The notes below the pieces were generated by a model. The model was given only the letters and a program-made list of their open reading frames with translations, did not search any database and had not been told where the DNA came from. Shown one piece after another: positions 8 to 24,381 of a stretch of 27,135 bases of DNA. This stretch comes from a virus (taxonomy: Duplodnaviria > Caudoviricetes), in IMG/VR virus record IMGVR_UViG_3300012041_000058, positions 1-27,135 of that record; one strand, given 5' to 3'. Every line of letters starts with the position of its first letter. Position 1 is the stretch's first letter. The position numbers and the translations under genes were made by a program.

Positions 8-199
8 TTAATACGTGGTCCCTTCCCATTCGACAGGCCAGTTTGGCATCTCTCGCAGCATCCAGGGAAACACCTCCTGCACGCTGTAGAAGATTTGCAT
101 GGCCCCATCACGTCGGATCAGCTCTCTGGTATCATGACGGCGTAAGGCAAACGCCAAGCCAGTATTTGCTGACCAATACCGAACAAGTTCAAGCCGCAT
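8..199 (-). CDS. hypothetical protein (63 aa)
   Basis: ORF with AAGGA upstream of ATG; TAATG stop/start overlap at the window edge. Confidence 0.6.
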   Translation of the reverse strand: MRLELVRYWSANTGLAFALRRHDTRELIRRDGAMQIFYSVQEVFPWMLREMPNWPVEWEGTTY

Positions 200-220: not shown

Positions 221-354
221 TGGTGGGGGAGACTGCCTGACAACAGTGACCTCCCAGATAATTCCAAGATCAGAGGCATGGCTCCCTTGCGGGAAGTCTG
301 TATTCTCCGGACGCCTTGAAAGCTGGACGCTCTTAACATCTGAGCTACTCCCCC
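221..354 (-). ncRNA. tRNA-like RNA with 58-nt structured insertion in the anticodon loop (nominal anticodon UUC)
   Basis: Acceptor GGGGGAG/CUCCCCC plus ACCA; U8A9; D arm GCUC/GAGC; anticodon stem UCCAG/CUGGG enclosing 65 nt that begins CUUUCAA; variable AGGUC; T stem ACUGU/GCAGU with non-canonical loop. Confidence 0.7.
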
Positions 355-360
355 GTATCC

Positions 361-493
361 GACCTCAAGCTGAGCTACTTTCGTTGAAACATCGTGTCCT
401 CAGCTCAAGGCCAACCGATGTCATCGATGCAGAGGGTAGGGACCACCCGCTCGGGGATAGCTCTGTGGTGCAATCCACAGCGTTTAACCTACC
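361..493 (-). ncRNA. candidate structured RNA(s): three-way junction (435-493) and 14-bp hairpin (361-412)
   Basis: GGUAGG/CCUACC closes CUGUGG/CCACAG and GCUAUCC/GGGUGGU; GGCCUUGAGCUGAG pairs with CUCAGCUUGAGGUC. Confidence 0.45.
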
Positions 494-499
494 GGGCAT

Positions 500-540
500 T
501 GGTGGAGGCGGCGGGAATCAAACCCGCATTCAACGCCCCC
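500..540 (-). ncRNA. 41-nt tRNA-Ala/tmRNA-type minihelix (acceptor stem plus T arm only)
   Basis: GGGGGCG-UUGAAU-GCGGG-UUUGAUU-CCCGC-CGCCUCC-ACCA: 7-bp acceptor with G3.U70, A73, encoded CCA, 5-bp T stem with 7-nt loop. Confidence 0.8.
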
Positions 541-560
541 GAAATCGTCACTACTGGTGT

Positions 561-719
561 GCTATTACGCCAAAGGAATATACCATCCAGGACACTCGCC
601 AGTCGAAACCAGCTACTCGCGGTGACGCCTTGCCGCGTTGCATCCTACGATTCCACTCATTATAGGTAGGGCTGGTTAGTGTTCCAGCCTGGACGCTTCT
701 AATCCCACCTGCCAATAGC
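561..719 (-). ncRNA. candidate ~160-nt rod-like structured RNA
   Basis: Nested stems GCUAUU/AAUAGC, GGGAU/AUUCC, CGUCCAGG/CCUGGAUG, ACACU/AGUGU, AACCAGC/GCUGGUU, capped by CCUAC/GUAGG and CGCGG/CCGCG hairpins. Confidence 0.5.
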
Positions 720-731
720 GAACCTCAAAAT

Positions 732-801
732 TGATGCCGAATGACTGACTTGAACCACCATCTCTGCGTCGATAGCAGCGTCTTAATTAGACGATTCCGG
801 C
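732..801 (-). tRNA. degenerate tRNA-like element (nominal anticodon UCG, Arg)
   Basis: GCCGGA/UUCGGC acceptor, GUCU/AGAC D arm, CUGC-UAUCGAC-GCAG anticodon arm, GGUUCAAGUC T loop; weak T stem, A instead of U33, ends A-UCA. Confidence 0.45.
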
Positions 802-807
802 GTTGTT

Positions 808-1083
808 GCCCATCCTTTCTGTTGCCAGGCGATGGGCCTTCCCCGTCTAATCAATGATTAGGCAGCAATGGGCAGCGCGTAGCTGTCTTTTGCTTGTTGT
901 GCTGTTTATCGCCTGTCACCGGCTACCCGATCCTCGCACGTCAGTCCAACGCCCGTCGAACCTAAGTCACCCCCATCAGGGGAACACCAGGAACTGCGAA
1001 CCAGTTCCCCGATGTCCCCTTGGTGGAGGTGGCGGGATCTGCCCCCGCGTCCGAACGCCATTCCTTCATGGTCATCAGATCAA
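808..1083 (-). ncRNA. ssrA: circularly permuted (two-piece) tmRNA
   Basis: Acceptor piece ends GGAC-GCGGG-GGCAGAU-CCCGC-CACCUCC-ACCA at 1021; 46-nt hairpin intervening segment 1020-975; coding piece starts GGGGGUGA..GGUUCGACGGG at 974 (G3.U70); tag frame (AQQ)AKDSYALPIAA-stop at 902/893-858; CCUGGCAACAGAA hairpin near the 3' end. Confidence 0.92.
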
Positions 1084-1187
1084 GCTCAAAATCTTTGGTT
1101 AATCTCGCTTACCCCACCAAAAGGTCTTTACCACAGCGAGCCTTTGGCCAGTCATTATGATGCCGTGCGTCAGACTGGCAATTGAGC
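1084..1187 (-). ncRNA. unrecognised pseudoknotted RNA motif, copy A
   Basis: GCUCAA/UUGAGC closes GCCAGUC/GACUGGC and CUCGCU/AGCGAG; loop UUUGGU pairs with downstream ACCAAA; second copy at 4408-4508. Confidence 0.75.
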
Positions 1188-6042: not shown

Positions 6043-6071
6043 TTGACAATCAGCCCAAAATGTGCTAAACT
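6043..6071 (+). promoter_or_regulatory. sigma70-type promoter antisense to the NADAR gene
   Basis: TTGACA-17 nt-TAAACT with extended TGn; TTGACAATC shared with promoters at 13120 and 24390. Confidence 0.55.
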
Positions 6072-6523
6072 TGGGGTGTTACACCGCACAACGACTTGCG
6101 AATCTCCATCAACATCAGGCCCAATCGATTGGCGCCTTCGTTGACGTGTCCCTTCCGCTTACAAGTACACTTTCCCCATACCACGTCGTGCCACCAATTG
6201 CCCTCGACAAGCTCCCGGTTGCCAGTTTCTTGCAGCTTCCGTGAAAGATCGGGATCAAGGAACTTCTGTCGCAGCAGATCCAGCATCACCACGAACCGAA
6301 CAGCATTCCAATCCGGCCTCAGCTTTGCGGAATGTCCAATCCGCTTGGCCATCTTTGCAGCATCGCTCGGAAGTGCAGCGAGCTTGGCGCGGTAGATTGG
6401 ATCTAGCGATTTGGCAGCTTGATAGGCATGCTCCACAGAGCCATATCGGACTCCATCCAATTCGACCACGACAGGCCAGAAATTGGAGAGCCAACGATAT
6501 TCTCCGTCAAACTTGTTGATCAT
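6065..6523 (-). CDS. NADAR family (YbiA-like) N-glycosidase / ADP-ribosylhydrolase
   Basis: LSNFW, SVEHAYQAAK, RPDW, QKF, TG.RELVE, D..WG and G.NRLG..LM.IR motifs. Confidence 0.92.
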   Translation of the reverse strand: MINKFDGEYRWLSNFWPVVVELDGVRYGSVEHAYQAAKSLDPIYRAKLAALPSDAAKMAKRIGHSAKLRPDWNAVRFVVMLDLLRQKFLDPDLSRKLQETGNRELVEGNWWHDVVWGKCTCKRKGHVNEGANRLGLMLMEIRKSLCGVTPQV

Positions 6524-8455: not shown

Positions 8456-9238
8456 TTACTCCACTTCATCCATAATGTCCCGATCGAACACATCGATGAA
8501 CGGTGTGATATTCGACGGGAGTTTGATCTTCGGTGGCTCGATGTCTGGCTTGACAATGCGGAGACACGCTGCACACCAGTGCATACGATGCTTCTCACAA
8601 CGCTCGGTTGGAAGTGGCTGGGCCATCCTACGGGCCTTCGCATCGGTCGCTTCAGCAAGCATCTGACCGTATAGCTCTCGTTGGCTGTTGTTAAGCCTTG
8701 CCTCACGTTCCAACGCTGCGAACTTCTCACGGCATGCCTCGCAGCCGATCCCACTCATCGATACAGGCTTACGCTTCCAACGCTTCCAGATTTCCTTCGG
8801 TCCGCGCTCTTCGTCCTCTCGAAACTGAACGAAGCCACCAATGGTGATCTTGTGGAAGTCATTGAAAACAGTATACTTAGCGCGTGATACCTTGTATACC
8901 TTGCCATTTCGACGCAGCATCGGCTGGCTGATACGTATGGTGGCGCCGTGAACCTCTCCAGGCATCACAACACCGCATCCGATACAGATCAAGCCAACAC
9001 TATTGCCGTCAAGCAATACCGACCGTTGCGGGCATGTTTCGATGATCTTCTCGGTGCAACCGAAGACATGCTTGCCTAACTTGAAGCAGGCGCCGCACAT
9101 CGACTCAGCGTTGCAGGTGATCTCCGTCGCAGTGCCGCGAGACAGCAAGATTTCAAGCCAATTACTGTAGAACGGCACGCCTCGCAATGGAGACAATTCC
9201 AAGATCTTGGTGCCGTCGGCAAGCGTGGAGACTTTCAT
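8456..9238 (-). CDS. Cys-rich hypothetical protein
   Basis: 260-aa ORF with several CxxC motifs; ATGA coupling. Confidence 0.7.
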   Translation of the reverse strand: MKVSTLADGTKILELSPLRGVPFYSNWLEILLSRGTATEITCNAESMCGACFKLGKHVFGCTEKIIETCPQRSVLLDGNSVGLICIGCGVVMPGEVHGATIRISQPMLRRNGKVYKVSRAKYTVFNDFHKITIGGFVQFREDEERGPKEIWKRWKRKPVSMSGIGCEACREKFAALEREARLNNSQRELYGQMLAEATDAKARRMAQPLPTERCEKHRMHWCAACLRIVKPDIEPPKIKLPSNITPFIDVFDRDIMDEVE

Positions 9239-9702
9239 CGGAGTGCCTCGATGAGTGTGTCGTAAGTGAGCTTGTAAATGCCGGGATTCTTACGCTCTCG
9301 ATTCCCAGCCACGTTCAGCACCGCGATGTTGTTCGCTACGATCCACTTACGCAGATTCTTCGCTGTTTCCTTAGTGCCGTGTTTCTCGAACGTAGCGAGG
9401 ATAAACGGCTTGCCATGCTGTTTACAGAGCTTCCGTGTCAACGCGCTGCCCGGTGAAGACGGATTGCCAAAGATCACAGTGGCATCGCTATCGATTACGT
9501 TTTGTTCGGTCCGAGGTGGATACTCAGCCGACTCATGCTGTTTCAGCTTGTATAACACTCGATCACCGATGCAGAGCGGGCCTTCGTCTGTTCGCCAGCC
9601 ATATGGCACCCATCCGCCAGTCTCAATCCCTAGCTTGATCGCAGCGTCCAATCCAGCACGATCACTTCCCGTTTGCCCGCCGCTCACAACGCGTGTAATC
9701 AT
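9235..9702 (-). CDS. SLOG superfamily 'putative molybdenum carrier' (cpYpsA-like) protein
   Basis: VSGGQTG.DRAGL, GGW.P.G, Y..RT..NV.DSDAT, LNVAGNRE motifs. Confidence 0.88.
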   Translation of the reverse strand: MITRVVSGGQTGSDRAGLDAAIKLGIETGGWVPYGWRTDEGPLCIGDRVLYKLKQHESAEYPPRTEQNVIDSDATVIFGNPSSPGSALTRKLCKQHGKPFILATFEKHGTKETAKNLRKWIVANNIAVLNVAGNRERKNPGIYKLTYDTLIEALR

Positions 9703-12098: not shown

Positions 12099-12208
12099 GC
12101 TTACCTGCCGCTATCCACGTTTCGCATGCGGGCTTTAGACCGCCAATGGCCGTGTTACGGTGTGGAGGTAGACCGCCTCCACTCGGTAGCCTTGTTACTT
12201 CGCTACGC

Positions 12209-23197: not shown

Positions 23198-24381
23198 ATG
23201 GCACTTACCGTTCAATGTTCGGACGCCTCGTTAAGTAATTAACGAAGAGAAAACTTCTGGTAATGGGCTTGAACCCTGTGATGGGAACAAGGCGGAAGCA
23301 GGTTGAAAAACCGGGCACCGTGAGAGACTAAACCCAGAGGCTCCTAGTACTGGACTAGGAAGATGTGATAGTCCGTGCTTATGGGAATCGAACCATAAGA
23401 GGTTAGCAGAAATGACTAACCCGGCGTAAATCATTACGCTGTAACAACTTACAGGAACAGATAGCCGCAGTGAGCTACCCCGCAGTTCTAGCAGAAAACC
23501 GCAAGGCTGCAAATCAGTGGGTCGAAAATGCTGCCCTGCGTGTTCTAGAGTCAATGGGCTTCGTCCAGCGAATTTCGCTTGGTGAGAACATTGAGGCTCC
23601 TCTAGACTACCGCCCAAATCCAGATACCGCCGTTCTGGCCTCTGACCAGGATTCGGCTGCGCTTCTAAAGACCGAAGTCATCACCTCAGCGGTGTACGAC
23701 ATCGCACAGCTCAATGTTCCAGTAACCTGGACAAAGGGTGACGAAGCAAAGAATCCCGAAGAGAATCAGAAGATTGCTCTTGTCAAAGCACTGCTTGAGA
23801 ACGCCATCAATTCTCACGATGACCTCATCGAGCAGCGCATCTTCACAAGTTCAACAGTCGGCGGAGTTGAGCTAAATGGTCTGAATGACCTTGTTCCTAC
23901 TTCAGGACAGGGCACAGTCGGAGGTATCGACGCTTCAGTCGAGACTTTCTGGCGTAATCAGGCGGACACCTTCGTTGACGGTTCGGATATCGAAGCGGCA
24001 ATGACAGAGGTCTACAACAACTGCGCGAAGGGTACCGGCGGACTAGCTCCGAAGGTCCTCATCAGTGGTTCGGCCACACACGCACTATTCGAGAGTCAGC
24101 TTCAGTCGCTGCAGCGTTTTGTTGACAGCAACGAAGCGGATGCCGGTTACAAGATCCTGGCATTCAAGGGCGCGAAGTATGTGTTCTCCCACAAGGGTGG
24201 AACATCAATCTACTTCCTTAATCCGAAGAACTATCAGCTTGTTGTAAGTCGTCAGTACTTCCGAGACAAGGGCTCAACTTACGACGTTCCGGGTCAAAAC
24301 GCTTTCTATTTCCTCGTGTTTTCGGCTTTACAAATGATAACCAATAATAAGTCAAGACTAGGGGTTCTAAGCGCCGCATAA
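23198..24381 (+). CDS. major capsid protein, spliced: join(23198..23212,23455..24381), 313 aa, MALTV|EQIAAVSYPAV...
   Basis: AGGAG RBS plus ATG at 23198; removing the intron restores the frame; LNGL.DLV...GTVGGID.....FWRNQ capsid signature; follows scaffold. Confidence 0.88.
23213..23454 (+). mobile_element. group I self-splicing intron, ORF-less, 242 nt
   Basis: 5' exon ends in U, intron ends in G; IGS UGUUC-G-GACG pairs with 5' exon CGUU (P1, U.G) and 3' exon GAACA (P10); P3 CUUCUGG/CCAGAGG; P7 GACUA (23326)/UAGUC (23369); P2, P8 and P9 hairpins present. Confidence 0.94.

Follow-up and report, generated by a model that had tools for sequence, protein, structure and literature searches.

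A 41-nt alanine-type minihelix in a phage genome fragment: anatomy, relatives and candidate roles

Minihelices are standard laboratory models of tRNA, and a synthetic minihelix-Ala was reportedly described by Francklyn and Schimmel in 1989. TRNA-like folds without arms are also familiar as t-elements, or tRNA punctuation signals, which RNase P and 3'-end enzymes could cut. SmpB binding needs a D loop and connector. A TLD-only (CDS-less) form of tmRNA has been described in mycobacteriophage DS6A and in Mallomonadaceae plastids, and the DS6A-like RNA is reported to inhibit tmRNA, perhaps by titrating SmpB (PMC4131195, PMC11915505). Within the TLD literature, SmpB is described as standing in for a tRNA's lower half when it binds the TLD (PMC3985003), and tmRNA 3' fragments are recorded at integration (att) sites (PMC4131195). 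Phage tRNAs have been linked to the countering of the tRNA-targeting defences PARIS, Septu and retrons (PMC13728456), and passages of two reviews of phage defence and counter-defence name only full phage tRNAs as countermeasures. A literature search, in which subscription journals were thinly covered, returned no report of a genome-encoded arm-less phage minihelix. Here we describe such a unit in a 27,135-base phage fragment (the window, meaning the whole stretch of DNA analysed), which is about 30% complete and has matches to terminase and the major head protein.

Anatomy and origin of the 41-nt unit

The minihelix runs from 540 to 500 on the minus strand and is 41 nt long. A 7-bp acceptor (540-534/510-504), whose sole wobble is G3.U70 at 538/506, is followed by a 6-nt linker, UUGAAU (533-528), a 5-bp T stem (527-523/515-511), a 7-nt T loop with U at position 56 (522-516), discriminator A73 (503) and an encoded CCA (502-500). 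Fold and pattern check both agree with this architecture, which had been noticed in a first-pass annotation of the sequence. All 12 stem pairs are intact, and the minimum-free-energy fold (-21.3 kcal/mol; z -2.58) makes up 99% of the ensemble. No other perfectly paired unit with a linker of 20 nt or less occurs in the 27,135 bases; 300 dinucleotide shuffles gave three perfect minihelices of any kind and none with both G3.U70 and A73, and, given the 3' 28 nt, a perfect acceptor strand would arise from random upstream sequence with a probability of 0.004. The Rfam tmRNA model RF00023 scores the unit at 36.6 bits (E 1.8e-11), under its gathering score of 47, and aligns to it at both model ends, and ARAGORN makes no call anywhere in the window. 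The short alanine-type minihelix is a confirmed, real feature, with this copy known from one genome. An assembly artefact was rejected: a contig from run X1, which may be the source sample, covers 442-1358 with zero differences and spans the minihelix unchanged. A second-study contig (X2) is identical over 380-530 and ends before the 5' acceptor strand. A coding role was also rejected, the overlapping ORFs at 246-665 (plus strand), 118-339 and 8-199 (both minus) being without a Pfam match.

The T loop holds U54, U55, G57 and A58, and departs from the canonical U54-U55-C56-R57-A58 at position 56, where U replaces C. C56 is present in 34 of the 35 distinct TLD-only RNAs among the matches listed; U56 would fit a unit that has no D loop partner. 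The acceptor pairs with probabilities of 0.36, 0.98, 0.96, 0.17 and 0.40 in five longer transcripts, a spread from 0.17 to 0.98 with transcript ends which indicates that folding of the minihelix depends on processing of its neighbours.

The last 28 nt are identical to a tmRNA-type 3' end at L123 (28/28, U56 included) and match such ends at 27 of 28 positions in L098, L110, L115 and L124. These five loci are unrelated, and the neighbouring tmRNA matches at 21 of 28 positions. The contrast points to a bacterial-type tmRNA (or tRNA-Ala-like) end as the source, and, judging by these alignments, the probable ancestor of the minihelix is the top of a bacterial-type tmRNA or tRNA-Ala and not the adjacent permuted tmRNA. 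Derivation from that neighbour had been the earlier suggestion, with U6-A67 versus C6-G67 taken as a compensatory change. It loses its footing here, because the match is closer elsewhere and the T loop of the neighbour's acceptor piece is different, and C6-G67 is also present in other tmRNA-type units. Immediately 5' of its T stem the minihelix carries the hexamer GGCGUU, as do the neighbouring tmRNA and the Rfam permuted-tmRNA consensus; none of 44 other tmRNA-like ends has it. This match implies that part of the minihelix 5' strand could be remodelled P2 sequence.

Such resemblances raise the alternative that the unit is a relic with no selected function, either a bacterial-type tmRNA 3' end, acquired as an att fragment or remaining after a second tmRNA or tRNA gene decayed, whose upstream bases pair by chance, or the product of an internal deletion. 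The equality of its 3' 28 nt with tmRNA-type ends at att-like sites fits this account, as does a 5' strand that may be partly old P2, but chance pairing sits poorly with 12 of 12 intact pairs. On the whole evidence, including the relatives and wider searches below, we regard a relic as somewhat unlikely.

Other arrangements with the surrounding sequence were considered and set aside. As the acceptor piece of a second permuted tmRNA, the minihelix would find within 250 nt upstream only its own perfect partner; the downstream G run at 354 is already paired with its own partner. A one-piece 475-nt tmRNA spanning 974-500, left over from a duplication, is possible in sequence terms and is considered unlikely, with the intervening tRNA-like gene and the different T loop counting against it.

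The RNA cluster and the related phages

Within the first 1.2 kb of the window, one strand carries a permuted tmRNA, a degenerate tRNA, the minihelix and a 134-nt tRNA-shaped RNA. The permuted (two-piece) tmRNA is matched by RF04321 at 858-1082 (87.5 bits). Its acceptor piece (1021..1082, minus strand) has an encoded CCA ending at 1021, and its coding piece (807..974, minus strand; RF01849 at 807-1126, 66.1 bits) has an acceptor 5' strand from 974, a tag frame at 893-858 (AKDSYALPIAA*) and an alpha-type 3' motif at 825-817. The degenerate tRNA-shaped RNA (735..801, minus strand; RF00005 23.5 bits, under gathering, with no ARAGORN call) retains a paired acceptor and D arm alongside an odd anticodon loop, a weak T stem and no encoded CCA. 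The minihelix lies between a 194-nt spacer without clear structure (541..734, minus strand; z -0.90) and a 145-nt spacer with a 15-16-bp hairpin (355..499, minus strand; z -1.91). Neither spacer has an Rfam match at E<=1 or a convincing match among the loci compared (best E 0.44). The stretch 499-355 was also inspected by eye for HDV-like and twister motifs of a self-cleaving ribozyme; Rfam lends no support, and none is claimed. The 134-nt RNA (221..354, minus strand; no Rfam match) has a perfect 7-bp acceptor with the non-alanine pair G3-C70, a D arm, a 6-nt T loop and an ACCA end, and about 65 nt stand where the anticodon loop would be. Its constrained fold reaches -44.4 kcal/mol against a minimum of -49.7 kcal/mol, and apart from the minihelix it has the sole NCCA with a perfect partner in 1-1400. 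A weak sigma-70-like promoter match (10/12) lies upstream of the cluster at 1154..1181 (minus strand); three such sites were found in 1-2400 against a chance expectation of 1.9, so that the match does not stand out from chance.

The alternation of non-decoding tRNA-shaped units with 145-194-nt spacers suggests that the minihelix may instead serve as a punctuation mark. Host RNase P and 3' trimming at the unit would free the RNAs on either side of it (734-541 and 499-355) from each other or set transcript ends, the cut at 540 would give the spacer 541..734 its 3' end, and neither the minihelix so released nor its alanine identity would be more than a by-product. RNase P is reported to contact the acceptor and T stems together with RCCA and to cleave minihelices (PMC11221534), and non-alanine mini-tRNAs of related phages (G001-G003, below) adjoin tRNAs ahead of the capsid gene. 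The spacers nevertheless speak against this function through their weak z scores and their lack of an Rfam or good locus match, and at L268 the tRNA immediately ahead of a comparable minihelix already supplies a cut site. We regard punctuation as rather unlikely.

Several other features of the window were recorded. A noncoding stretch upstream of the tmRNA (about 1098-1185, minus strand) is 74% identical over 91 nt to G005:20723-20813 (E 9e-8), which lies near a pistol ribozyme; the shared stretch is possibly a conserved RNA motif. The neighbouring protein at 1202-1786 has no viral relative that we could find. A Twister-P1-like match under gathering (31.8 bits) lies at 12107-12161 (minus strand), with a similar one at L075:1103-1154. 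On the plus strand at 23200-23470, the capsid gene appears to start at about 23198 and to be broken by about 230 nt until the ORF at 23470, a break that looks intron-like by eye. NADAR and circularly permuted YpsA SLOG genes at 6065-6523 and 9235-9702 (minus strand) may possibly serve counter-defence, and a NADAR gene is also present in G011, the phage that carries the L268 minihelix.

Twelve related loci were found with the head protein. In G004, the nearest relative that covers the region (its terminase is 76% identical), a permuted tmRNA lies in synteny, with no minihelix behind it. ARAGORN found no tmRNA in the complete genomes G001 and G005, both scanned whole; Rfam coverage extended to the whole of G001 and the first 60 kb of G005. 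Three relatives have perfectly paired, anticodon-less mini-tRNAs of 49-51 nt without G3.U70, beside tRNAs and ahead of the capsid gene (G001:96293-96341, G002:241-291 and G003:22667-22717); comparison of the G002 and G003 units shows swapped pairs at 1-72 and within the T stem. The tRNAs beside these units carry odd anticodon loops, and the same slot in L041:6832-6895 holds a 64-nt tRNA-like unit. The absence of the minihelix from G004 is in keeping with a relic, as is the degenerate look of both tRNA-shaped neighbours, but no integrase or recombinase was found in this clade's complete genomes. Tyrosine integrase was found in none of five records (G000, G001, G004, G005 and G008) and serine recombinase in none of five (G000, G001, G004, G005 and G011), and smpB was likewise found in none of the five records checked. 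Neither kind of enzyme was found in the window or in two complete relatives, the window being about 30% of a genome with the minihelix 500 nt from a contig end.

Short alanine-type RNAs in wider collections

All patterns used to search the collections required G3.U70, A73 and CCA, so selection for alanine identity cannot be read from the matches. A pattern search of phage databases had been proposed as a check, and its outcome was divided: the architecture recurs, in L268 and in hairpin-bearing forms of 53-60 nt, and no homolog of the window copy was found. This holds for five viral pattern scans whose design could recover an arm-less unit or its linker, for GTDB and for cultured phages; in a metagenome scan the only match to this copy was the window's own record. 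Selection on this copy, as earlier suggested, is not supported because no homolog was found.

Short-gap patterns returned 14, 20 and 26 loci from viral contigs, the first pattern (14 loci) yielding only tRNA and tmRNA 3' ends. Three short-gap matches belong to the 3' portion of a 68-nt TLD-only RNA, two are a 47-nt unit with a 6-bp acceptor that precedes a tRNA array, and three are att-like near-minihelices beside ORFs that we take, from their motifs, to be integrases. The metagenome scan gave 31 loci, the window's own record and 30 others, many of them att-like fragments, and GTDB gave two matches in 185,579 genomes. ORFs were scanned at 26 of the metagenome loci (65 of 94 ORFs listed), and four of these loci have a recombinase domain alongside, a setting that suits a relic. 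Against this stand the single fully paired unit among the 30 other metagenome matches, which has U6.G67, and the GTDB count of two. Att-like tmRNA 3' fragments at L261, L267, L273, L290, L020, L024 and L027 have an upstream arm that pairs over 6-8 bp with the acceptor strand; this pairing is seen in several distinct sequences, and minihelices may originate at att sites.

A GGGGC-type scan returned 42 loci. About 15 of them are 38-39-nt att-like near-minihelices, again as expected of relics, and one, L268, is a perfect arm-less unit, an alanine-type minihelix of 44 nt with a 9-nt linker (L268:501-544 = G011:19044-19087). It lies 7 nt behind a tRNA-Lys in the 12-tRNA array of an unrelated phage, an array that includes Lys, Arg, Leu, Ile and Val tRNA genes, and it differs from the window minihelix at pairs 5-68, 6-67 and 49-65. 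Its presence in an unrelated phage means that the arm-less design recurs independently at least once, and the same design in a clean gene slot weighs against a relic.

Longer forms are more common. A longer-gap pattern gave at least 120 loci, at least 90 of them perfectly paired and some of these short full tRNAs. DS6A-like TLD-only RNAs, with D loop and P2 stub, account for at least 65 loci and at least 35 distinct sequences (L129-L241, alignment A2), and distinct viral members among the matches listed measure 62-71 nt. Paired bases fill 98.4% of the cells of the alignment, in which perfect acceptor and T stems, though not the P2 stub, were a selection criterion; covariation is 0.561 against 0.149 in shuffles. 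All 35 distinct TLD-only RNAs listed have a P2 hairpin of at least 4 bp, and 6 of 6 of its pairs covary; their D loop follows from the rule by which they were selected. Viral contigs carry this family widely, and its P2 stub and T stem covary strongly.

A second group, 53-60 nt long, is built of an acceptor, a small hairpin, a linker and a T arm (L101, L106, L146, L159, L179, L212, L228, L258 and L291), and its stems are kept through pair swaps. The minihelix is without the hairpin of this group; the common feature is the linker tetramer YUGA, found in 6 of the 10 units listed. A free-5'-strand pattern gave five loci, four with a perfect upstream acceptor strand. The cultured Salmonella phages SE131 (MG873442, L309:471-529) and pSal-SNUABM-01 (L319:309-367) carry an unannotated 59-nt member with an alanine-type acceptor, small hairpin, T arm and CCA. 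Alanine-type short RNAs form a size series from 83 nt (DS6A) down to the 41 nt of the window minihelix, the smallest seen of the 41-60-nt series. BLAST of the 41-mer against cultured phages matched 127 records, of which the five examined were four permuted tmRNAs and one tRNA; among 12 further cultured-phage matches examined, a short paired unit was found only in SE131 and pSal-SNUABM-01. No partner gene recurs near five analogous units (51 of 59 ORFs scanned). ARAGORN misses the short alanine units, and most score under the Rfam threshold.

These searches also returned unannotated permuted tmRNA genes in cultured phages (L253-L256, L308 and L310, in Tunturi_4, CcrPW, CcrRogue, RcSimone-Hastad, QDWS595 and BUCT628), a 95-nt tRNA-like RNA of alanine type in Phass-1 (L314; OQ749652), unannotated and bearing three inner hairpins, and a weak YrlA (Y RNA-like) match at L159:656-765, directly 5' of a 60-nt alanine mini-RNA.

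Candidate function and comparison with known systems

The reading we prefer, at a probability of about 0.35, is that the minihelix is cut out, charged with alanine and acts as a decoy, itself unable to decode, for host enzymes directed against tRNA acceptor ends. The minihelix would be co-transcribed with the neighbouring tRNA-shaped RNA genes, host RNase P would cut at 540, trimming to CCA would follow at the 3' end, host AlaRS would charge the product with alanine, and the charged minihelix could then divert host defences that attack tRNA acceptor ends. The fold, the alanine identity set, the clustering on one strand and the recurrence of the design in other phages are observed, and minihelices are established substrates of AlaRS, RNase P, EF-Tu and at least one CCA-pyrophosphorylating toxin; co-transcription, maturation, charging in vivo and the decoy role are inferred. 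G3.U70 is described as governing alanylation in a source that cites minihelix work, and by these identity rules alanylation of the window minihelix by AlaRS is predicted (PMC9976931); EF-Tu, too, is reportedly served by minihelices (PMC11221534). The T-stem combination GC/CG/GC is assigned -10.7 kcal/mol for EF-Tu binding (PMC3239215), and ordinary tmRNA ends share this combination with the minihelix. FaRel2, a CCA-pyrophosphorylating toxin of anti-phage type, is reported to modify a synthetic minihelix efficiently, reading the first five acceptor pairs and needing C2-G71 (bioRxiv 10.1101/2024.07.05.602228). The earlier proposal of a chargeable type of unit gains from this literature, in which minihelices appear as substrates of AlaRS, RNase P and a CCA-modifying toxin.

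A decoy is favoured by the position of the minihelix on the same strand as the tmRNA and two other tRNA-shaped RNAs, and by L268 (one of 42 loci) as an independent arm-less alanine minihelix. Against it, the minihelix carries G2-C71 and not the C2-G71 required by FaRel2, acceptor pairing is as low as 0.17-0.40 in three of the five longer transcripts, G004 is without the unit, the 49-51-nt mini-tRNAs of three relatives are without G3.U70, and att-type tmRNA fragments form near-minihelices, with L123 sharing the 3' 28 nt exactly. A broader proposal, which we regard as less likely than not, is that phages encode a natural class of minihelix genes, anticodon-less and SmpB-independent alanyl-tRNA tops of 41-60 nt that would be matured by host RNase P, charged by host AlaRS and act in trans as decoys against defences aimed at tRNA acceptor ends.

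Other roles in trans for a charged product are conceivable: it could be a sink for EF-Tu or AlaRS, act on stalled ribosomes as an acceptor in the manner of puromycin, donate alanine to a transferase or titrate SmpB. Full alanine identity and a tight-binding T stem would suit them, and the inhibition of tmRNA by the DS6A-like RNA offers a precedent (PMC4131195, PMC11915505). Yet the phage has its own tagging tmRNA, a drain on EF-Tu would presumably harm the phage too, and neither an aminoacyl-transferase nor an smpB gene turned up in the genomes checked or in the window, which covers about 30% of its genome. With no partner enzyme found, the alanine donor put forward earlier loses ground, and the SmpB ligand put forward with it is rejected on structural grounds: the minihelix has neither the D loop nor the P2 stub that DS6A and 35 of 35 distinct TLD-only RNAs listed retain. 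Taken together, such roles are improbable. The minihelix cannot decode and is predicted not to bind SmpB.

If a charged 41-nt product is real, the top half of a tRNA works alone in vivo, and a decoy route of phage counter-defence based on RNA comes into view. Should the phage class be real, the laboratory minihelix would have a natural counterpart in the form of a working gene. In SE131, a cultured phage, the 59-nt relative offers the best bench model for the class and makes the question approachable now.

Set against the systems described so far, the minihelix resembles each in part. It shares with the DS6A TLD-only tmRNA the character of a short phage RNA with a tmRNA-type alanine acceptor (7 bp, G3.U70, A73, CCA) and T arm and no tag frame. 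Unlike DS6A (83 nt) and the 35 of 35 distinct viral TLD-only RNAs listed, which keep the D loop and P2 stub, it has a 6-nt linker where they have a D loop (about 12 nt, unpaired, with CGAY at its end), has no P2 stub helix with 3-nt connector before the T stem, and is at least 21 nt shorter than the TLD-only RNAs listed. It is not a canonical tRNA-Ala, having no D or anticodon arm and, at 500-540, no RF00005 match or ARAGORN call. Att-site tmRNA fragments (L020, L099, L108, L123 and L124) have the same T arm, acceptor 3' strand and CCA, and some a partly pairing upstream G run; the minihelix shares their identity to a bacterial tmRNA 3' end but differs in its perfect pairing and its tRNA-shaped RNA neighbours, and no recombinase was found in the window (about 30% of its genome) or in two complete relatives. 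It is arm-less like the t-elements, but belongs to a bacteriophage, encodes CCA and has full alanine identity, with processing only putative. The phage tRNAs that counter PARIS, Septu and retrons are likewise tRNA-type RNAs supplied by the phage, and the minihelix is proposed to blunt a host attack on tRNA as well; the known ones are complete, can decode and take the place of cleaved host tRNA, whereas the minihelix, which cannot decode, could act as a competitor only. With synthetic minihelix-Ala it has in common the 12-bp helix of acceptor and T stems, G3.U70, A73 and the NCCA end, with no D or anticodon arm, and it differs in being genome-encoded, in the 6-nt linker between the acceptor 5' strand and the T stem, and in U56.
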